In this document: positions 1,675 through 23,464 of the stretch, piece after piece
Numbering within the stretch: position 1 is the stretch's first letter
Layout: each line of letters begins with the position of its first letter
Origin: a virus
Taxonomy: Duplodnaviria > Heunggongvirae > Uroviricota > Caudoviricetes
Strand: one strand, 5' to 3'
IMG/VR virus record: IMGVR_UViG_2675903352_000013
Location: 1 to 25,016 of that record
Length of the DNA stretch: 25,016 bases
Made by a program: the position numbers and the translations under genes
The notes under the pieces: model-generated
The model's database searches: none
What the model was told of the DNA's origin: nothing
Seen by the model: only the letters and a program-made list of their open reading frames with translations

Positions 1675-3993
1675 TTAAATCCGAAGTGATGTAACTCTTC
1701 CGGTCGGTTTGACAATAGGGAATTGCTTAACAATAAAATAACCTCCGGCATCATTCGGGTGATCGTTGCCAGATTTTTTATCAGGCTCACCCTTATCATC
1801 CCAGACCTGTTGCTCCAGAGATTCGGCATATACCGGACAACGCTTCACATTAACTTTATAGCGACGCTCACCATTGGCATTGCAGAACATTGCATTCATT
1901 GAGTTAACGCGATCTTTTACTGGCGGATTCGAACTGTTTACAACAACGTTAAAACCAGCCTGTTTAAGCTGAGCAATATCCGTCGCACTTGCGTTATTTG
2001 ATTTTCTGGAATCCCCGGATGCATCAGGATAAATATAAATTTCCCTTACTTTCCGATAATCATTCCCGTCATATAACCAGAAGCGCTCTTTAATAATACG
2101 GATCATATCTGGTGTATCGTAAGCGTTAATGATTTCAGTTACTGCGCATGGAAGCCCAAAACGTAACACATGAACGACTCCAGCCATTTTTCCGACGTTA
2201 AAATCCATCCCGATATATATCGGCTCACCTGGCTGTTCCTCTTCTTCGCAATTATTCAGTTTTCGGTCAAACTGATGGTAAACAGTACCACTTGTCAGGT
2301 TAGTAAACTGTCCTCGAAGATAGGCTTTAATCAGCTCTGGAGGATATGACTCAAGGAGCGAGGGAATGTAATCTGCTGGCAAATTCTTTTCATTATCGAA
2401 AGTAGATGCCTGCACCAGACCATACAGTGAGGCCAGCTCTGTTTTTTCACGTACGGCTTTAACAAACTGCTCGTAGACAAATTTGAATCCTTCCGGCGTG
2501 GTTGTAACGTCAATACCGTTACGAAGTCCATCAACCTTATAACGCATACGCGCAATTATCTTGCGCCACGCTGTTCTGGCTTTTTCCTTCGGCAAAATGT
2601 CCAGTTCATCCACCAGCGCATTACCAATTTTGAAACCGACGATCGTTTGCGGCTTCTCCATCGTTCTGCAGATAGTGGTTCCACGATACTGACGTCCGTA
2701 ATAAAAATGAACTTCTTTATTTCCCTCGTTAATTTTTACATTTAGCCCCCAGTCGGCAGCAACTTCTTCAACTGTAGGATAAAAAATATCGCGAATTTGT
2801 GGATATGTAGGCGCAAAATATCCCTGATTTATACCCGGATGCTCCCAAATCCCCTTACATATGCCACCACATCCAACCCATGTTTTACCGCTATTGTGAT
2901 GAATCGTCCCATCAGCAGTTACGTAGCAGTTATTATCCAATACCTGGAGGTCATAATATGGCTCGGCCTTCTGCAACAGTGTTACACTCAATATGTTGCA
3001 GGTTTCGATTAAGGAGTTTGGTTTTGACGCCTCTTGACCGTTTAATTTGTGATTTAGCACATCCAGAACGTACCGTTTCAGAAGTTGCTTCTCTGGCAGG
3101 TTGTGACCGCAGTCATGTTTATCGTTGCATATCTCGTTATGGGTTAACGCTGAAACAACACCAGAAGCCTGTCCCTCGAGAAAGTGCGAAGGACAGAATC
3201 CTCGCTCTTGCTGATGGTCACCGTACGTCGGCAGAGATCGCGGCGGAAGTTGGTTGCACAGAAAAGCACGTTCAAAATATTCTCCGAATTCACAACGCCA
3301 ACCGGCTACCCTGTGGCGCCAGAAAGGGTGAGTTGAACCCCAGCTTTCGTGGTGGTCGAATTGTTGATCTGGATGGATATGCCGTTGTTCCAGCGCCTGC
3401 TGACCATCCATATATGCGCAGAACAGGCATGATGTTTGAACATCGTTTGATCGCTGAAAAGAAGCTGGGGCGTTATCTGCTGCCATCAGAAGTTGTTGAC
3501 CATATAGACGGGCTTCATCTGCATAACACCCCAAGTAATCTGCGAGTTTTTGATTCAAACGTGGATCACCTGCGTGCAACGATTTCGGGACGGCGGCCAA
3601 ACTGGTCAGAAGAAGGTTTTGCGAAGATGCAAATACCTTCACCGATTCGTCCAGACTATCCACAGATCGATAGCTACCGTCAGCGCAAAAAACGCGGTGA
3701 TGTCCGCTTGCTACAAATTCTCCTCGCTGCGTCACTACTCGGTATAGATTCGACACACCTTTTGGGTACGCACCACCACTTAGCGAAAGCTCAAATCGAT
3801 TATTCTCATCCGACCAAGATAAAACGCGCATTGGTCGAGTTATTTCCTGAATGGGTAGAATCCCATTCTCTGTAACCACAGGCGTACTTCCCCTCAGGCA
3901 ACCAAAACCAGCAACATAGGCTTTAAATTTATGAGGCATAGAAAGAAATCGCGCCTGAGGCACATTAAGCGTCGGAGAGATCATCTTCATCAC
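1675..3993 (-). CDS. Terminase large subunit (TerL) carrying an in-frame intein within the Walker A P-loop
   Basis: Continuous 772-aa ORF. N-extein ends KAYVAGFG and C-extein begins SGKTWVGCGG, so removing residues 32..367 restores a canonical P-loop AGFGSGKT. Downstream motifs: Walker B-like NALVDELD, and nuclease-domain acidic motifs IYIGMDFNVGK and YPDASGDS. Start overlaps the putative terS 3' end by 29 nt. Confidence 0.8.
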   Translation of the reverse strand: MMKMISPTLNVPQARFLSMPHKFKAYVAGFGCLRGSTPVVTENGILPIQEITRPMRVLSWSDENNRFELSLSGGAYPKGVSNLYRVVTQRGEFVASGHHRVFCADGSYRSVDSLDESVKVFASSQNLLLTSLAAVPKSLHAGDPRLNQKLADYLGCYADEARLYGQQLLMAADNAPASFQRSNDVQTSCLFCAYMDGQQALEQRHIHPDQQFDHHESWGSTHPFWRHRVAGWRCEFGEYFERAFLCNQLPPRSLPTYGDHQQERGFCPSHFLEGQASGVVSALTHNEICNDKHDCGHNLPEKQLLKRYVLDVLNHKLNGQEASKPNSLIETCNILSVTLLQKAEPYYDLQVLDNNCYVTADGTIHHNSGKTWVGCGGICKGIWEHPGINQGYFAPTYPQIRDIFYPTVEEVAADWGLNVKINEGNKEVHFYYGRQYRGTTICRTMEKPQTIVGFKIGNALVDELDILPKEKARTAWRKIIARMRYKVDGLRNGIDVTTTPEGFKFVYEQFVKAVREKTELASLYGLVQASTFDNEKNLPADYIPSLLESYPPELIKAYLRGQFTNLTSGTVYHQFDRKLNNCEEEEQPGEPIYIGMDFNVGKMAGVVHVLRFGLPCAVTEIINAYDTPDMIRIIKERFWLYDGNDYRKVREIYIYPDASGDSRKSNNASATDIAQLKQAGFNVVVNSSNPPVKDRVNSMNAMFCNANGERRYKVNVKRCPVYAESLEQQVWDDKGEPDKKSGNDHPNDAGGYFIVKQFPIVKPTGRVTSLRI
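2893..3900 (-). other. Intein (Hint domain) inserted in the TerL P-loop, about 336 aa
   Basis: Read directly from the minus-strand translation: block A-like CLRGSTPVVTENGILPIQEI starting with Cys (codon 3900..3898); block B-like GEFVASGHHRVF; block F/G-like YYDLQVLDNNCYVTADGTIHHN followed by +1 Ser (codon 2892..2890). No LAGLIDADG or HNH motif in this frame between the blocks. Confidence 0.7.
2958..3875 (+). CDS. HNH endonuclease (HNH_3-like motif) with two N-terminal HTH-like segments, encoded antisense within the TerL intein
   Basis: Plus-strand ORF (track 2880..3875). ATG at 2958 is preceded by GGAGG at 2946..2950 with a 7-nt spacer. Motif DGYAVVPAPADHPYMRRTGMMFEHRLIAEKKLGRYLLPSEVVDHIDGLHLHNTPSNLRVFDSNVDHL matches the classic phage HNH homing-endonuclease pattern. 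Two HTH-like repeats upstream (RTVSEVASLAGCDRSHVYRCISRYGL and RTSAEIAAEVGCTEKHVQNILRIHNA). The C-terminal ~100 aa may be non-functional read-through constrained by the opposite-strand frame. Confidence 0.6.
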   Translation: MARPSATVLHSICCRFRLRSLVLTPLDRLICDLAHPERTVSEVASLAGCDRSHVYRCISRYGLTLKQHQKPVPRESAKDRILALADGHRTSAEIAAEVGCTEKHVQNILRIHNANRLPCGARKGELNPSFRGGRIVDLDGYAVVPAPADHPYMRRTGMMFEHRLIAEKKLGRYLLPSEVVDHIDGLHLHNTPSNLRVFDSNVDHLRATISGRRPNWSEEGFAKMQIPSPIRPDYPQIDSYRQRKKRGDVRLLQILLAASLLGIDSTHLLGTHHHLAKAQIDYSHPTKIKRALVELFPEWVESHSL

Positions 3994-5059
3994 TCCTCAC
4001 TCTGGCATCAACCACATTAATATTGATCGCCACAGGCTGGGGATGTTCATTACCCTCCACCGTTTCGATCTCTTTGCGCAGTTTCTGGTTTTCCATTCTG
4101 CGCCGTTCAATTTCCAGTTCCTGCAGTCGCTTATCTGCACATAATGCCCCGCCAGCGGAAAGCAAACGCAATAATTCACGCCGGGCGGCAGCTTTATTCT
4201 CCAGCAGGATCTCAACGCCGAATTTTCCGAGCTTTGCTCCTGCATACAATTGCCGCGCATTTCCATCAAGCAAAGTGGTATCAGCCATATAAAGCTGACC
4301 TGTACCTTCTCCACCGCATTTCGGACAGTCTGGATTTGGTATGGCGCTATCAACGAAACCGAGGCCACCATATTCAGGTTCTGGTTTACCATCTTTGGAT
4401 GCCTGCGCGGCAGCCCTGTCAAATTCTGCTATATCGCGCCACTGATAGAGGTGATTCTCCCCCCAGCAATAGCGACAGTTAACACGGCGAAATTGCGCAA
4501 GCTGATTGGGATCAGCCTGCACGATGGCCATCAACTGACTCACCAGTAAATCCAGGTCTGCGGTATAGCGTTTCTGGTAATGATTGCGAAAGTAGCTGAT
4601 GGCACGAAAAACCCTGGCATTTCTAAGCATACGACTGGCATTGCTGTTTGCTGTCGCACCTTGCCCCTCGTAACCAGCCAGGCGGTATGCCTCTGTCGGC
4701 TTTTTCCCCTGAGCAACCAACATGGCGAATTTTGCCTGCTGGTCAGAAATACCGAATTCATCGGGGCAAAACGAAATTTCTTCCGTGTCCCCCTCAATCA
4801 GGAGTGCATCGGATACAGCCTTTTTTTTCTGAGATTTTCCGTTTTGCTTTTGCGCAGTCTGCGCAGTTTTTTTTCGCGCACTTTTTTGCGCAGTTTTGCG
4901 CACTTCTGTCTGCGCATTTTTCGGAGGTTTCTTGATGTAACGACGGGCTGTTGCGTAATTCAGTCCCTTTGCTTCACACCACGCCACCGGAGATACACCG
5001 GAGCGGGTGTATTCAGCAATATATTCCTGCTGCAACGCCCCCCAGTCCGGTCTGCTCAT
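3965..5059 (-). CDS. Putative terminase small subunit / DNA-packaging DNA-binding protein
   Basis: 364-aa ORF with ATG at 5059..5057, immediately upstream of and overlapping TerL. N-terminal HTH-like segment (VSPVAWCEAKGLNYATARRYI), Lys/Gln-rich low-complexity linker, CxxC...CxxC pair, C-terminal coiled-coil-like tail. Assignment rests on synteny and architecture. Confidence 0.45.
   Translation of the reverse strand: MSRPDWGALQQEYIAEYTRSGVSPVAWCEAKGLNYATARRYIKKPPKNAQTEVRKTAQKSARKKTAQTAQKQNGKSQKKKAVSDALLIEGDTEEISFCPDEFGISDQQAKFAMLVAQGKKPTEAYRLAGYEGQGATANSNASRMLRNARVFRAISYFRNHYQKRYTADLDLLVSQLMAIVQADPNQLAQFRRVNCRYCWGENHLYQWRDIAEFDRAAAQASKDGKPEPEYGGLGFVDSAIPNPDCPKCGGEGTGQLYMADTTLLDGNARQLYAGAKLGKFGVEILLENKAAARRELLRLLSAGGALCADKRLQELEIERRRMENQKLRKEIETVEGNEHPQPVAININVVDARVRSDEDDLSDA
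4842..4925. repeat. Array of six (T)GCGCA(G/C)-T-rich direct repeats at roughly helical spacing inside the putative terS gene
   Basis: Sequence ttttgcgcagtctgcgcagttttttttcgcgcacttttttgcgcagttttgcgcacttctgtctgcgcattttt; GCGCA cores near 4852, 4861, 4877, 4888, 4898 and 4911. The corresponding protein segment is a low-complexity K/T/A/Q stretch. Confidence 0.6.
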
Positions 5060-5062
5060 CAG

Positions 5063-5314
5063 TTAGTCCTGATTTTTATCCACCCTGAGTAATGCACGCA
5101 GAGCAAAGGCATCCCCTTTTCTGGCAAGCTTAAACAATGCCGCCCGTAGCTCGGCTTCACCTTTCGCTCTGCCCTTACGGATGGACGCATAAAAATTTGT
5201 CATTGTTTCCCGATTTTCTTTCAGTCTGTTCAGATCAACATCCAGAACGTCAGCGATTTGTTGTGCAGTCATCCGGCATGCTGCCAGAGACTCGACTTTC
5301 GAATACGGAATCAT
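5063..5314 (-). CDS. Small HTH-containing protein directly upstream of terS
   Basis: 83-aa ORF, ATG at 5314..5312 preceded by a GGGGGTGA Shine-Dalgarno-like sequence; stop TAA is 3 nt before the terS ATG. HTH-like segment MTAQQIADVLDVDLNRL. Confidence 0.45.
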   Translation of the reverse strand: MIPYSKVESLAACRMTAQQIADVLDVDLNRLKENRETMTNFYASIRKGRAKGEAELRAALFKLARKGDAFALRALLRVDKNQD

Positions 5315-6200
5315 TTATCACCCCCATTGATATGCAGGGTGTCTTCTTCCTGTATTTTTCGTGAAGGATTTTTACTGCAGCGTTGTTCCAGGTGACCTGA
5401 TGGTGAATGCGTTTATGGCTGGCGCCCATCAGTGAGATTTTTACGCACGACGGCGCATACATGACGGAGTAAAAACTTTTAACGTAGGTACCGGAATCCA
5501 GATACAGTTCGGTCATTCCGCCGCTGTTTTTCTGCGTTTGCTTCTGCCCTAACTGGACAGCGCCAATCGTCAAAAACAATTCACCACGACGACCGAGATT
5601 CGTGTATGTATTCACATCCTCGTTAATACGCCCCATAAATGAGAATGGTCGGTCAACAGAACAAATAAAGCTGTTCATTGCTTTGCGTTTCACCCATGCA
5701 GCATGACCACCATTATCACCAAGAAAGTCTCCCCCCTGCGCCATAGCGATGGAAAGCGCAGGAATTGATTCGTAATACGCCAGCATTTCAGAAAGGATCG
5801 CGTCCAGTTTCCTTATCGGAAAATAAGCCTGGTCATAGTTGCGATCTACCCGAAACTGAAACTCGTGATAGTCGTCATCAAGCTGGATGTAGTATTTACA
5901 CCCAACCTTTTTTGCCAGGCCCAAACAGGCATTCCTGGCATAAAAGATTGAACGTCGATCGCCAAAGTTGTCGGCTTCGTCAAAACGACTGGCGATATCG
6001 GCTTTGGAAAACACCAGCACCTGCTCACCAAATTCTGCTACGTACTGATGCCGGGTTTTATCTTCATCATCAACAACGATAAAAATTTTCCCGGTATAGC
6101 CAGCACGACGCAACGTCCGGTAAGTCAGAACTTTGTCCGGTCGCCCGTGAGTCAGAATAAAGGCGCAAAAATCATCACGCATATTACTCCTCCTCGCCAT
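5250..6200 (-). CDS. Hypothetical protein with GT-A-like glycosyltransferase signatures
   Basis: 316-aa ORF, ATG at 6200..6198 with SD GGTGGAG; overlaps the ParB-like gene by 17 nt. N-terminal pattern FILTHGRPDKVL...GKIFIVVDDED and a DxD-like motif YIQLDDDYHEF resemble the GT-A fold. The fold call is tentative. Confidence 0.5.
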   Translation of the reverse strand: MARRSNMRDDFCAFILTHGRPDKVLTYRTLRRAGYTGKIFIVVDDEDKTRHQYVAEFGEQVLVFSKADIASRFDEADNFGDRRSIFYARNACLGLAKKVGCKYYIQLDDDYHEFQFRVDRNYDQAYFPIRKLDAILSEMLAYYESIPALSIAMAQGGDFLGDNGGHAAWVKRKAMNSFICSVDRPFSFMGRINEDVNTYTNLGRRGELFLTIGAVQLGQKQTQKNSGGMTELYLDSGTYVKSFYSVMYAPSCVKISLMGASHKRIHHQVTWNNAAVKILHEKYRKKTPCISMGVINDSVFESRVSGSMPDDCTTNR

Positions 6201-6963
6201 GCATGATCTCCACCATGCGCTGCGTCATCCTGACAAACCCATTTTCAATTGCCTGCTGATAATCAATGATCACCAGAGCCGATTCCTCAAAAAGGCTCTG
6301 AATTTCAGCGGGGGCGTGAGCGTAATAGTCCGCGATTCTGCTGAAATTAAACACCGTGTGACGTTCTGCCGCGCACAGAAGGAATTTCTCAATATCAGGA
6401 TCAAGGGACACCGAACGTGTCCGGCTGATCAGCTCCTGAGTTTTCGTATCGTCGTACAGTTCACAGATATCCGGTTTATCGCCTGACGGCTCATAAACAG
6501 GCGTATCAATTTTCGTCGTATACGGCTCCTCCTCATTTCCTGTACCAGGCAAAATATCCGTCAACAGTTCATCAATTTCTGTCGGGCTGAAGCCTGTCAG
6601 GGAGACATCAAAATCAGCATTAATTAGGTCCGACAGCTCCATCCGTAACAGATCTTCATCCCAGCCAGCATTCATCGGCAGGCGATTATCTGCCAGACGG
6701 TACGCCTTTTTCTGATCATCCGTCAGACCAGACAGAACGATGACCGGAACGAAATCCATTTTGAGCACTTCAGCCGCCATAACGCGACCGTGACCCGCAA
6801 TAACTTCGCCCTTTTCATCAATCAGCACCGGATTAGTCCAGCCAAATTGCTTAATGCTTTCTACCAGTTGCGTCACCTGCTCAGGGCTGTGTGTCCTGGC
6901 ATTGTGTGCATACAGAGACAGCTCTTGTAACGGGCGATAGACGATCTTCAATTTCTCGCTCAT
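6184..6963 (-). CDS. ParB-like nuclease domain protein
   Basis: 259-aa ORF, ATG at 6963..6961 with SD GAGG. N-terminal ParB/Srx-like domain (YRPLQELSLYAHNARTH, LVESIKQFGWTNPVLID, IAGHGRVMAAEVL, KKAYRLADNRL); acidic C-terminal half. Confidence 0.7.
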   Translation of the reverse strand: MSEKLKIVYRPLQELSLYAHNARTHSPEQVTQLVESIKQFGWTNPVLIDEKGEVIAGHGRVMAAEVLKMDFVPVIVLSGLTDDQKKAYRLADNRLPMNAGWDEDLLRMELSDLINADFDVSLTGFSPTEIDELLTDILPGTGNEEEPYTTKIDTPVYEPSGDKPDICELYDDTKTQELISRTRSVSLDPDIEKFLLCAAERHTVFNFSRIADYYAHAPAEIQSLFEESALVIIDYQQAIENGFVRMTQRMVEIMHGEEE

Positions 6964-9100: not shown

Positions 9101-9643
9101 TTATTGGCTTTCTCCGCATAACGCTAATTTCATTGGTATATACAGAATGTGCTCAGCAACACTCAACCATGCGTCAATGCGATTTCTGCAAGTTTTCAAG
9201 CTCCAGCCAGGGCGATACTCATTTAACTGTTGTGCCATTTTCAGCTTACTCATCCCCCGTCCCTCATACCGTTGTCGAAGGACGCTAATCAATCCCGGAT
9301 GTTCTGTCAGCACCTCACTTATAACCCGATCAATACATAACGCCTCTGCATCAGTACAATGCGCCAGCCAGCTCTTTTGCTTCCCGTTGATCATCTCACG
9401 TAAAAATGCTTCCAGCTCCGGCTTCTCTATTCCCGCTTTTTTCATCCTGCGCAGGGCTTCATTGACGGCTGTTTTCGTCAATTTTTTGGATGCCAGCAAC
9501 TGGTTAAACATATTTCCCATCTTACCGCCGCCAATATACGACCAGCGCCCCCACATGCGCAGTTTTCCCTGAATCCAGACACTTTCCAGCGTGGTGAGAC
9601 GAAGGTGTTCCCCGCTTTTGCCTGTATTTGTTGGGTAAATCAT
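9101..9643 (-). CDS. Putative late-gene antiterminator (Q-like), by position
   Basis: 180-aa ORF, ATG at 9643..9641 with strong SD AAGGAAGG; ATGA overlap with the upstream gene's stop. It is the last gene before the terminator cluster and lysis cassette. No sequence-level family match recalled. Confidence 0.4.
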   Translation of the reverse strand: MIYPTNTGKSGEHLRLTTLESVWIQGKLRMWGRWSYIGGGKMGNMFNQLLASKKLTKTAVNEALRRMKKAGIEKPELEAFLREMINGKQKSWLAHCTDAEALCIDRVISEVLTEHPGLISVLRQRYEGRGMSKLKMAQQLNEYRPGWSLKTCRNRIDAWLSVAEHILYIPMKLALCGESQ

Positions 9644-9894
9644 AAATAACCTTCCTTTCTCCAGATTTCTTGTGTGCGAAAAACACCTTCTGCATGCATC
9701 AGGCGCAATTCTTCTTTGGTGTAATCACTGGTTTTTACCCGCCCGTCGATTAAATCGTGGCACGAGCTACAGGCAATCGCTGCCTGCATATCGTGTGGCT
9801 TTATCGCTGTTCCGCACGTTCCCGCCAGTCGGTAATGCGCCGCACGGATGTTTCGGGATTGTGATTGCAGTAGCCAGGAATTCTGACTGTACAC
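9640..9894 (-). CDS. YbcO-like (DUF1364) protein, GTG start
   Basis: Motif CGTAIKPHDMQAAIACSSCHDLIDGR...EGVFRTQEIWRKEGYL resembles the YbcO family as recalled. Track start is GTG; an in-frame stop lies 18 nt upstream, so the N-terminus appears shorter than I recall for the family. Confidence 0.5.
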   Translation of the reverse strand: MYSQNSWLLQSQSRNIRAAHYRLAGTCGTAIKPHDMQAAIACSSCHDLIDGRVKTSDYTKEELRLMHAEGVFRTQEIWRKEGYL

Positions 9895-9928
9895 ATCTGA
9901 CCTTTTGCCGCTTTACGTAAATCCACCA

Positions 9929-10528
9929 TTACGCAAACTCCAGCAGCTGCGCGGCCACATTTTCGACTTCCTCCAGAGAGGAGAATTTACGGAACAGGAT
10001 CCAGTTCCACAGGACGTTAAGTACGGCTTTATAAACCTGTTGAAATTCAGTTTCGTCCATATTCGCAAAAGCAATGGACTTCGCCCGACGCCCGCGGCTA
10101 CCGTCTGGATAAAAATGCTCGGTGTAGAAGCCGGCCTGAATGGTCACCCACTCGCGGAAAGCGTCAAATGATTTGAGCAATGCCATATCCTGGGTTCTGC
10201 GTGTCGCAACGGTATTCAGATATTGTTCCGCGGCATCACTCAGAGCTGGCGTATGTTCCCTGCCTACTGATTCACACAGGTAATCAACGAAGCCGAACAC
10301 CATTTCTCGTTCGCGAGGTGTGATCGCCCCACCGCTCGGAGTCCAGTAATCGAATCCAAGTTGCAGAAGTTTGAAAAAACGCTTGTGAAATGCATAGTTA
10401 CGCACACGCTTAAAATCAGCATGTATCCACTCGCCTATTTTGATTTGATGCAGAAAATCGCAACTCTCCGGTGTCGCCGGGAGCAGTAAGCCGGAAGATG
10501 TTTGTTTAACCAGTTGTATATGCGCCAT
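9929..10528 (-). CDS. Hypothetical phage protein (nin-region)
   Basis: 199-aa ORF, ATG at 10528..10526 with SD GGAGAA. No family recognised. Confidence 0.5.
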   Translation of the reverse strand: MAHIQLVKQTSSGLLLPATPESCDFLHQIKIGEWIHADFKRVRNYAFHKRFFKLLQLGFDYWTPSGGAITPREREMVFGFVDYLCESVGREHTPALSDAAEQYLNTVATRRTQDMALLKSFDAFREWVTIQAGFYTEHFYPDGSRGRRAKSIAFANMDETEFQQVYKAVLNVLWNWILFRKFSSLEEVENVAAQLLEFA

Positions 10529-10599
10529 CGTAGTTCTCCGCTGGCGCAGTAGAATGGGTGTTCAGCCCGTTGTGTAGTATACCAGAATCAATGCCAATA

Positions 10600-10812
10600 C
10601 TAACAGGATGCCCTGACTCGCAACTCATCTGGCAATTTATCATTTCCCATAATATCACTATTCCTCATCGGTAAAAAAATTGCCTTGCGACCATTCCGAT
10701 ACATCATTGCTTTTTGTGTATCAGGGAAATAATCCATTTCAACAATAACTGACAGATCATCACAACGTATGACTGCAAATTTAGCGCCAAAAGATTTCTG
10801 TGATTTTTTCAC
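10600..10812 (-). CDS. Small hypothetical protein, GTG start
   Basis: 70-aa ORF; GTG start preceded by GGAGG at a 5-nt spacer. Adjacent to an AT-rich tract. Confidence 0.4.
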   Translation of the reverse strand: MKKSQKSFGAKFAVIRCDDLSVIVEMDYFPDTQKAMMYRNGRKAIFLPMRNSDIMGNDKLPDELRVRASC

Positions 10813-10996
10813 GATGCCTCCAAGTCTCTAAGGAAAGAGGTTTATATCTACCTGGAGGCAAAAATATATATACACAGAATATTTATTTCATGTTGTATAT
10901 TTGATTATTTAATGTGCAGGTGCAATGACTTTTATTTATTGCCGCGCATATAATCAAATATGTGATCATCTTTCATCCTTCGTATTCGACAGACAA

Positions 10997-11022
10997 TAAA
11001 AAACCCGCCGAAGCGGGTTAGG
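10997..11022 (-). terminator. Rho-independent terminator at the 3' end of the hok transcript
   Basis: Minus-strand AACCCGC-ttcg-GCGGGTT followed by a T-run; a second perfect hairpin GGCGAGGGA-gaaa-TCCCTCGCC lies at about 11058..11081. Confidence 0.5.
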
Positions 11023-11087
11023 TGCGGGTGCGTTGAGGATGCCTGACACATCAGAGGTGGCGAGGGATTTCTCCCTCGCCAGGTCTC

Positions 11088-11243
11088 TTACTCCTCAGGT
11101 TCGTAAGCTGTGAAGACAGCGACCTCCGTCTGGCCGGTTCGGATTCGTACCTCGCAGAGGTCTTTCCTCGTTACCAGTGCCGTCACTATGACGGTTAAAC
11201 AGATGACGATCAGGGCGATTAACATCGCCTTTTGCTGCTTCAT
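11088..11243 (-). CDS. hokD: Hok/Gef-family type I toxin (HokD/RelF-like)
   Basis: 51-aa product from the internal ATG at 11243..11241: MKQQKAMLIALIVICLTVIVTALVTRKDLCEVRIRTGQTEVAVFTAYEPEE, matching the Hok/Gef pattern and HokD as recalled. The track ORF extends in frame upstream to 11360. Confidence 0.85.
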   Translation of the reverse strand: MKQQKAMLIALIVICLTVIVTALVTRKDLCEVRIRTGQTEVAVFTAYEPEE

Positions 11244-11319
11244 AGCCTGCTTCTCCTGTGTAAGTTCACAGAGATATTGCTCGCCTGGATACTGTTTCTT
11301 ATCGGTTATAGTGGTCATA

Positions 11320-11748
11320 TCACTCTCCTTTTCCCTTAAGCATTGCAGCGCGACAGGCATTCCAGCCCTTCACATAACCTACCATCATCAACTGGTCATT
11401 CATGGCGGGCAGCATTGTGCGGGACGTACTGATTTCCTCCGGCACTACCGGAACTGACGGCACAGACAGTAAAGCCTTGGCCATACACATTGCTTCCAGT
11501 CCTGTAGCCTCAGCTATACCGTCACGAATAAGTTCAAGCCCCTCTTTTGTTAACAGTTTCATTCTTTTATACATGACTGGCACCACCGGCTCTGCTTCCA
11601 GTGATGCCAGCGCGACTTTAAATGCGGTAAGTACGTTTTTAACCACATCGATTTTGAATACTATTTCATCACATACAAACGATTTATCGTCTACTACCGT
11701 TTCAATTCCGGTAATCGTGTTTTGTAGCCATTTGGTTAATTCAGTCAT
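11320..11748 (-). CDS. Hypothetical protein
   Basis: 142-aa ORF, ATG at 11748..11746 with SD AAGGG. No family recognised; its 3' end overlaps the in-frame region upstream of hokD. Confidence 0.5.
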   Translation of the reverse strand: MTELTKWLQNTITGIETVVDDKSFVCDEIVFKIDVVKNVLTAFKVALASLEAEPVVPVMYKRMKLLTKEGLELIRDGIAEATGLEAMCMAKALLSVPSVPVVPEEISTSRTMLPAMNDQLMMVGYVKGWNACRAAMLKGKGE

Positions 11749-11878
11749 TTTTCATTACCGCCCTTTCAGGCGGTCTCCTGATATTCTGAGGGTGCAGAAA
11801 TCCCTCCGGTTAAGGATTTAATAAAAATCACTTCTGATTTAAATTTTCAGTATTTTGTTGTCAGGTGGTTTATCGTCT

Positions 11879-12070
11879 TTATCTTTCAGCCTTATTTCTC
11901 AGCCATACACAAACAGGGCCATCTTCGGTGTCATATATCGAACCAATAAACCATCCATCGCCCTCTGGTCGTTCCGGTTCCCATGCAGAAATATCAGCAT
12001 CACAAGCATCAAAGTCAGCACATCCTTCGTCTCTGAAGCAGAGGACGTATTGAAGATTATTTTCCTCCAT
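11879..12070 (-). CDS. Small acidic hypothetical protein
   Basis: 63-aa ORF with ATG start. Preferred over the overlapping 86-aa GTG-start ORF on composition, but weak. Confidence 0.35.
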   Translation of the reverse strand: MEENNLQYVLCFRDEGCADFDACDADISAWEPERPEGDGWFIGSIYDTEDGPVCVWLRNKAER

Positions 12071-23088: not shown

Positions 23089-23283
23089 ATGCGATATGAA
23101 AAAGTTAAGCCATGTCCGTTTTGTGGTTGTCCATCTGTAACAGTGAAAGCCATTTCAGGGTATTACCGGGCAAAATGCAACGGCTGCGAATCCCGAACTG
23201 GCTATGGTGGAAGTGAGAAAGAAGCCCTCGAAAGATGGAATAAACGAACCGCTGAAAATATTAATGGAGGCATCTATGTATAA
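23089..23283 (+). CDS. ralR: Restriction alleviation protein RalR (Lar)
   Basis: 64-aa product from the second ATG: MRYEKVKPCPFCGCPSVTVKAISGYYRAKCNGCESRTGYGGSEKEALERWNKRT..., matching Rac Lar as recalled. Confidence 0.8.
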   Translation: MRYEKVKPCPFCGCPSVTVKAISGYYRAKCNGCESRTGYGGSEKEALERWNKRTAENINGGIYV

Positions 23284-23464
23284 AATTACCGCCACAATTG
23301 AAAAGGAAGGTGGTACTCCTACTAACTGGACAAGATATTCAAAATCTAAACTAACGAAATCAGAATGCGAAAAAATGCTCTCAGGGAAAAAAGAAGCAGG
23401 CGTTTCCAGAGAGCAAAAAGTAAAACTGATGAATTTTAATTGCGAGAAACTTCAGTCCTGGTAA
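23276..23464 (+). CDS. ydaC: YdaC-like small protein
   Basis: ATG at 23276 preceded by GGAGG at a 6-nt spacer; overlaps the ralR stop; product MYKITATIEKEGGTPTNWTRYSKSKLTKSECEKMLSGKKEAG... Confidence 0.6.
   Translation: MYKITATIEKEGGTPTNWTRYSKSKLTKSECEKMLSGKKEAGVSREQKVKLMNFNCEKLQSW

Follow-up and report, generated by a model that had tools for sequence, protein, structure and literature searches.

The hok gene described here lies in a 25,016-nt stretch of DNA, hereafter the window, that comprises positions 1 to 25,016 of the virus record IMGVR_UViG_2675903352_000013. The window is a prophage of the Rac-like lambdoid type: the RalA sRNA is present (Rfam, 209 bits), and regions of E. coli genomes with recE, trkG and intR match it at ~92% identity. 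Contig BBVQ01000008.1 (GCA_001514805.1) is 100% identical to the window over 6,390 nt. From ~12911 to 9101 the minus strand carries a run of genes in the order DUF977, small ORFs, orf142, hok, orf70, DUF1367, a frameshifted YbcO and a DUF1133 Q-like gene, so that hok belongs to an early operon whose genes all point the same way and stands upstream of the Q-like gene by a few genes; other Rac-type phages have hok at the equivalent position. The phage protein gene directly upstream of hok, orf142 (11320..11748, minus strand, taken from the ORF list), gave no match in Pfam or NCBIfam profile searches and no relatives in GTDB species representatives; it matches phrog_5117, of unknown function (E = 4e-16), and an exact-protein look-up places it before a DUF551 gene in sibling prophages. 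Its stop codon overlaps, in the sequence TGAtATG, the start of a chimeric reading frame that runs into hok.

The hok coding sequence occupies 11088..11243 on the minus strand (51 codons and a TAA stop) and translates to MKQQKAMLIALIVICLTVIVTALVTRKDLCEVRIRTGQTEVAVFTAYEPEE. The product matches Pfam HOK_GEF (PF01848) at E = 1.2e-23 and 82.9 bits, against a cut-off of 22, which makes it a member of the Hok/Gef family, and it also matches phrog_251 (MokW-like) at E = 7e-33. Compared with E. coli K-12 hokD, 0 of 156 nucleotides differ and the proteins are identical; the same coding sequence is found in the full-length locus of the sibling prophage L009. A first-pass annotation, made from the sequence alone, had called a 51-aa Hok/Gef gene of HokD type at this position, and both statements hold. 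The coding sequence of K-12 HokD is toxic when overexpressed (bioRxiv 10.1101/2025.08.07.668861), and the window Hok, by virtue of its identity with that protein, is a predicted membrane toxin. The hok Shine-Dalgarno sequence (SD), AGGAG, was located by alignment and exact-match extension at 11253..11257 on the minus strand, and it is at 11257, 14 nt upstream of the ATG, that homology to full-length hok loci starts. As a separate observation, the Tyr47 codon is kept (11103-11105, minus strand; UAC in a UACG context). A cysteine of HokD, at position 46 in the numbering of the paper concerned, has been reported to be coded by RNA editing, with 6% of hokD mRNA edited (PMC12214031), and the Tyr47 codon of the window appears to be this site.

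Downstream of the coding sequence, the minus strand contains a perfect 9-bp stem closed by a GAAA loop (GGCGAGGGA-GAAA-TCCCTCGCC; 11059..11080), which is present in both the MFE and the centroid folds and is conserved across all aligned hok loci. An intrinsic terminator follows at 10996..11019, again on the minus strand (AACCCGC-TTCG-GCGGGTT and a T-run; 7-bp stem with a UUCG loop, stem-loop 11019..11002), and is the sole terminator-like site that a terminator scan returned within 10500-12000. The two perfect hairpins, the second with a T-run, that the first-pass annotation had compared to the usual 3' end of hok are thus borne out by the sequence, by the terminator scan and by the fold of the 341-nt 3' UTR region (z = -4.3 relative to shuffles). 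Between the two hairpins lies an fbi-like box, CCUCAACGCACCC (11026..11038, minus strand), the complement of the start of the sibling leader, and its tac partner is gone from the window. The box pairs with GGGUGCUUGAGG, the first 12 nt of the L009 leader, over 12 bp with one bulge, a tac/fbi pairing of the kind described in PMC9841398. Because an RNAduplex comparison of the 5' leader with the 3' UTR did not discriminate (95 of 500 shuffles did equally well), the tac/fbi claim rests on this specific 12-bp complement and on the literature. The 3' fbi element and the terminal stem-loops of a canonical hok locus are present in the window.

A sub-threshold match to the Rfam family IsrK, at 25-33 bits compared with a gathering score of 50, was also obtained with the 3' UTR of each of the hok loci examined. 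IsrK is an Hfq-binding sRNA of Salmonella Gifsy-1. In the window the match covers the two 3' hairpins (10998-11079, minus strand; 31 bits) and is the only sub-threshold match on the locus; elsewhere it was found at L003 2191-2271, L009 4693-4774 and L002 3000-3081. The likeness may be mimicry by a hairpin followed by a terminator, or IsrK may be kin to the hok 3' end; a distant blastn comparison of the cassette with phages gave no Salmonella Gifsy matches that might explain it.

The tract between the hok terminator and orf70 (10850..10980) had been noted as strongly AT-rich, and with 29% GC compared with 46.8% for the whole window it is. It lies outside the hok cassette, as homology to E. coli hokD cassettes ends at ~10989-10999, before the tract begins, and it is identical in the sibling L009. 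Within it lies a plus-strand promoter-like sequence (ATGACT-18-TATAAT, 10925-10954; 10/12 matches) that is directed, antisense to the gene, into the terminator and 3' UTR of hok and is likewise identical in the full-length locus of L009. At the far side of the tract an inverted repeat, GCCUCCAGG...CUUGGAGGC, with a 26-nt loop (10816-10859, minus strand) holds in its 3' arm the GGAGG Shine-Dalgarno sequence of orf70, which starts with a GTG at 10812, and the hairpin could occlude the orf70 start.

The 5' side of the gene is of a different kind. We aligned the window and the hokD of the K-12 Qin prophage with three prophage loci (FDAARGOS_946, Rac 442/2 and Rac-SA53). All three share a conserved leader of ~190 nt beginning GGGTGCTTGAGGCT, and the window and K-12 hokD are without it, both losing homology directly upstream of AGGAGAAGCAGGCTATG. 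The leader of L009, which begins GGGTGCTTGAGG, is absent from the window, as is a promoter-like sequence situated just before it (TTGGCG-17-TAGAAT; L009 4325-4353). The Rfam sok model (RF01794), which spans the hok leader of full-length loci, found nothing in the whole window at its gathering threshold and nothing in 10700-11900 at E <= 10, and it gave no match on K-12 hokD; as positive controls the sibling L009 and Rac 442/2 (L003) scored 114.7 and 111.1 bits. From 11243 to 12000 a crude consensus search for promoters found nothing promoter-like on the hok strand, and the 4 promoter-like sites that it did find are not above the 3.3 expected from shuffles. The tac and ucb elements and the locus's own promoter, all part of a canonical locus, were not found in the window, and the mok-like start of the siblings falls in sequence that the window has lost. 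From these comparisons we conclude that the window hok is a gene without Sok, mok, tac or ucb and, by prediction, without a promoter of its own. Of the hok/sok/mok RNA elements for which a search had been proposed, the fbi box, hairpins and terminator were therefore found, sok proved absent by Rfam and by alignment, and the mok start and tac/ucb proved absent by alignment.

It should be noted that the mok-like ORF of this hokD/hokW-like subfamily shares the frame of hok and gives a product of 70 aa that reads MSHKCRLASYVPKGKEKQA followed by Hok (L008 4472-4684; L009 4472-4684). The annotation of 'mok' is inconsistent in public records: that of Rac-SA53 has it in frame with hok, that of Rac 442/2 in a different frame.

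Comparison with the sibling prophages shows what was lost. In siblings L008 to L012 the gene after orf142 encodes a 183-aa DUF551 protein and is coupled to orf142 by the same TGAtATG; small ORFs come next, after which L008 to L011 carry a full-length hok locus. Positions 1-3477 of L009 correspond to 14748-11272 of the window at 99.0% identity and positions 4515-6429 to 11257-9343 at 100%, and the 1,037 nt of L009 in between (3478-4514) are replaced in the window by 14 nt, CTGTGAACTTACAC. Relative to the siblings the deletion comprises most of the DUF551 gene, the small ORFs, the hok promoter, tac and ucb, the start of mok, and both the target and the gene of Sok. Since the target itself is gone, a Sok RNA supplied from elsewhere in the genome would be unable to act on this hok. 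The first-pass annotation had left unclear whether a Sok-like RNA or a mok-like frame regulates the gene, and the deletion of the leader disposes of both. What is left of the DUF551 gene is a 5' remnant of 47 nt (11272..11318, minus strand), identical to the start of the DUF551 gene in L008 to L012.

The sequence at the joint has its own origin. A stretch of 23 nt, GCAATATCTCTGTGAACTTACAC (11258..11280, minus strand), is the right end of an IS481-family element: in a blastn comparison of the complete element with the window only IS positions 1073-1095 match, at 100%; the window therefore keeps the last 23 nt of a 1,095-bp element and holds no complete IS481-family copy. The family assignment follows PGAP annotation and the NCBIfam model transpos_IS481 (221 bits). 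Complete copies are found at two comparison loci. In the cousin prophage L006 (CP117628.1) the 1,095-bp element (L006 3494-4588) lies between nucleotide 63 of the DUF551 gene and the hok SD and ends in ...GCAATATCTCTGTGAACTTACAC, and identity between L006 and the window reaches 37 nt upstream of the hok ATG. In E. coli E2348/69 (L015 2501-3595) an element identical to the L006 copy is a simple insertion in the hok SD, flanked by a 6-bp AGGAGA target-site duplication and with a complete hok leader on its other side. By eye, the -35 hexamer of the Sok gene (TTGCCT, antisense strand) adjoins the insertion point. In the window the 9 nt GCAATATCT at 11272-11280 are common to the IS end and the DUF551 gene, and thus constitute a microhomology at the joint. 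The hok coding sequence of L006 itself carries a 4-nt deletion (4636-4640) that shifts its frame, and the sequence after its terminator is a different one; the frameshift may be a sign of ongoing decay.

As the first-pass annotation had pointed out, no stop codon closes the hok frame upstream of its ATG, and the frame extends to an ATG at 11360 (90 aa). The ATG at 11318 makes a better start: it comes after the SD AAGGAGAG inside the end of orf142 and overlaps the orf142 stop. The ORF from this ATG (11318..11088) has a potential 76 aa, MTTITDKKQYPGEQYL-CELT-QEKQA-Hok, and is made up of the first 16-18 codons of the DUF551 gene, the IS-end scar and the hok SD region. Its residues 1-22 match phrog_6847 (a DUF551-type N-terminus) and its residues 26-75 match phrog_251 (MokW-like). 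This upstream frame is not a mok gene but a chimera that the deletions made and that falls in frame with hok by chance. The 76-aa chimera is recorded on one contig only, BBVQ01000008.1, and its junction was found neither in the 5,426 complete E. coli genomes nor, in an exact search, in GTDB species representatives. In predicted folds the hok SD can pair with the IS scar (UCUCUGUG/CACAGGAG) in a small hairpin.

A wider survey of E. coli places the locus among several known arrangements of the same cassette. A query containing the hokD cassette is matched by 4,737 of the 5,426 complete genomes. A hokD-like coding sequence joined to an intact leader is found in 4,022 of the 5,426, an IS481-hokD junction in at least 1,071 (genomes in which one place covers 80% or more of the IS-hokD query, the junctions listed being 100% identical), and the K-12-type relE-hokD junction in 1,166; in addition the cassette occurs in ~100 phage records, among them those of Stx phages, whose hokW is 93% identical. 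The first-pass annotation had correctly described the gene upstream of hok as an unrelated 142-aa ORF (11748..11320, minus strand; no Pfam match) and relBE as missing, and orf142 indeed has no match to RelE or RelB. It had further treated this absence as peculiar; given that relE-hokD is found in only 1,166 genomes, as against 4,022 with a leader and 1,071 with the IS junction, a hokD without relBE is the norm.

The closest parallel is K-12 hokD (relF), the third gene of the relBE operon of Qin, which has the same coding sequence, protein, 3' hairpin, fbi box and terminator as the window, which likewise lacks the whole leader, mok and sok, and whose homology to full-length loci starts at the same AGGAGA. 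Both genes are thus of the hokD type in the sense that the leader is lost just upstream of the SD. They differ in what stands upstream, which in K-12 is relE and a 71-nt spacer within Qin and in the window is orf142 and the DUF551'/IS-scar chimera within a Rac-like prophage, and also in that the window, unlike K-12, retains a visible IS481-family scar showing the route of truncation. The full-length hok/sok loci (L008 to L011, Rac 442/2, Rac-SA53 and hokW-sokW of Sp5) occupy the same spot upstream of DUF1367, YbcO and the Q-like gene, with the same 3' UTR and a coding sequence that is the same or 93-100% identical, but, unlike the window, they still have their promoter, the tac and ucb elements, a mok-like start and a Sok region that scores 111-115 bits with Rfam sok. 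In IS-disrupted loci (K-12 hokA, hokC and hokE, and IS481-hokD) the element parts the hok frame from its leader and spares the coding sequence. The IS481-hokD junction, found in E2348/69 and in no fewer than 1,071 E. coli genomes, has the same IS and insertion point as the window scar, whereas in the window the IS is lost except for 23 nt and the leader is deleted rather than merely displaced. Of the K-12 genes, hokA, hokC and hokE have been described as inactivated by IS elements and hokD by rearrangement, and K-12 hokD as tolerated for want of the components needed for its expression (PMC12214031; PMC6379469). The window hok is accordingly an ordinary case, a new allele of a Hok/Gef member that groups with the known IS-damaged hok loci of K-12. 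As a further observation, homology of K-12 hokD to full-length hok ends at the very nucleotide of the IS insertion (...AC|AGGAGA), which suggests that K-12 hokD may descend from an IS-split allele; a short-word blastn search of the K-12 relE-hokD spacer for IS or leader remnants gave only chance 8-9-mers.

We consider it probable that the window gene is a silent HokD relic in the lysogen, which lost its leader and Sok through insertion of an IS481-family element, an adjacent deletion and loss of the IS by microhomology; the structural history is shown by the sequence, and the state of expression is inferred. The ancestor would have been arranged as in the siblings, with orf142, DUF551, small ORFs, the hok promoter, a leader with tac, ucb, the mok-like start and the Sok target and gene, and then hok, fbi and the terminator. 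The 1,095-bp element would then have entered the hok SD and duplicated AGGAGA, a state seen in E2348/69; a deletion beside the IS would have taken away most of DUF551 together with the small ORFs and the leader, a state seen in L006; and recombination over the 9-bp GCAATATCT would have removed all but 14-23 nt of the IS, giving the state of the window. Still in place are the hok SD, an intact coding sequence, the 3' hairpin, the terminator and an fbi box that has lost its partner. The order of these steps is an argument from parsimony, in which L006, with its different 3' flank and its frameshift, is a cousin rather than an ancestor, and the simple-insertion state is seen in E. coli only, outside this prophage lineage. 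No antisense control of the window hok would remain. With nothing promoter-like found on the hok strand over 11243-12000, hok would be transcribed solely by read-through along the early operon, whose genes point the same way and which a lysogen normally keeps repressed. Ribosomes might start from the hok SD, which may pair with the IS scar, or, having ended orf142, might restart at the ATG at 11318 and yield a 76-aa N-extended Hok. A silent hok would be tolerated because it is unexpressed, as with K-12 hokD.

The intact coding sequence and an in-frame chimera with a strong SD coupled to orf142 speak on the other side, in that the gene could be expressed on induction. It is unlikely, on balance, that the locus encodes a functional toxin without an antitoxin, held by the prophage repressor, co-transcribed with the early operon on induction and producing a 76-aa or 51-aa protein that aids killing or lysis or its timing, as reported for hokW in Sp5. 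The identity of the coding sequence with that of a toxin active on overexpression (bioRxiv 10.1101/2025.08.07.668861) would fit such a role, as would the in-frame upstream ORF with its SD AAGGAGAG and its coupling to orf142. Since the mok-like 70-aa frame of the siblings is also in frame with hok, an N-terminal extension is native to this subfamily. Leaderless hokD with intact ORFs persists in >2,000 E. coli genomes, and hokW-sokW, whose cassette is 93% identical to that of the window, has a demonstrated role in the release of phage Sp5 (PMC8621323). Against this, the allele is found in one genome and its frameshifted cousin in a second, which gives no sign of conservation; the joint of the fusion is an IS scar and points to accident; the hok SD is able to pair with that scar; and ybcO of the same operon is frameshifted. 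A bolder proposal, that the chimera is a working antitoxin-free Hok gene silenced by the repressor and translated as 76 aa through orf142 coupling, and/or that IS481 insertion at the SD is a recurrent route to hokD-type genes including that of K-12, we regard as quite doubtful.

Two further readings concern the antisense RNA and the source of the cassette. It is highly improbable that the locus is still a type I pair, with hok repressed by a new, non-Sok antisense RNA from a plus-strand promoter. Candidate promoters can be named, one being TTCACA-17-GATACT at 11265-11293 on the plus strand, formed partly by the IS end and reading antisense across the chimera start, and the other the site at 10925-10954, which reads antisense into the hok 3' end. 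Promoter-like sites show no excess over shuffles, however, and neither of the two would produce a transcript covering 11243-11257, where hok has its SD and ATG; with 29% GC, the tract around the 10925 site is one in which such a match is expected, the site is equally present in full-length siblings that have Sok, and no Rfam family was found. That the cassette was imported ready-truncated by recombination from a K-12-type hokD, rather than cut in place, is barely credible, even though the coding sequences are identical and homology to full-length loci is lost at the same nucleotide before AGGAGA. L009 matches the window at 100% across the coding sequence, the 3' UTR and the 1.9 kb that follow, whereas the K-12 3' UTR differs at 4 positions before the T-run and the K-12 flank diverges after it, and what stands upstream of AGGAGA in the window is an IS end and not the K-12 relE spacer.

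Read as a silent relic, the locus itself matters little: toxin-antitoxin loci of this kind are common, and this one has decayed in an ordinary way. It does provide an example of stepwise decay, from full locus to IS insertion to adjacent deletion to loss of the IS by microhomology, in which the toxin gene is left intact. That one IS481-family element occupies one and the same hok SD site in roughly a fifth of the complete genomes of E. coli may account for how hokD-type genes arose. For annotation, some caution is warranted: the label 'HokD' spans full-length, IS-split and leaderless loci, and a 76-aa 'HOK_GEF' call such as that of the window is a chimera.

Two minor observations concern the rest of the prophage. 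The ybcO gene (DUF1364; 9640-9929, minus strand) is frameshifted into ORFs of 42 and 84 aa; the same split sequence is found in the sibling L009 and an intact 96-aa gene in other relatives. The frameshift, in the same operon as hok, suggests that the prophage lineage is decaying. The antitoxin sRNA RalA lies at 23282-23460 on the minus strand (Rfam RF02694, 209 bits compared with a gathering score of 170), and the prophage thus has a second type I system, the RalR/RalA pair of Rac, which is apparently intact.
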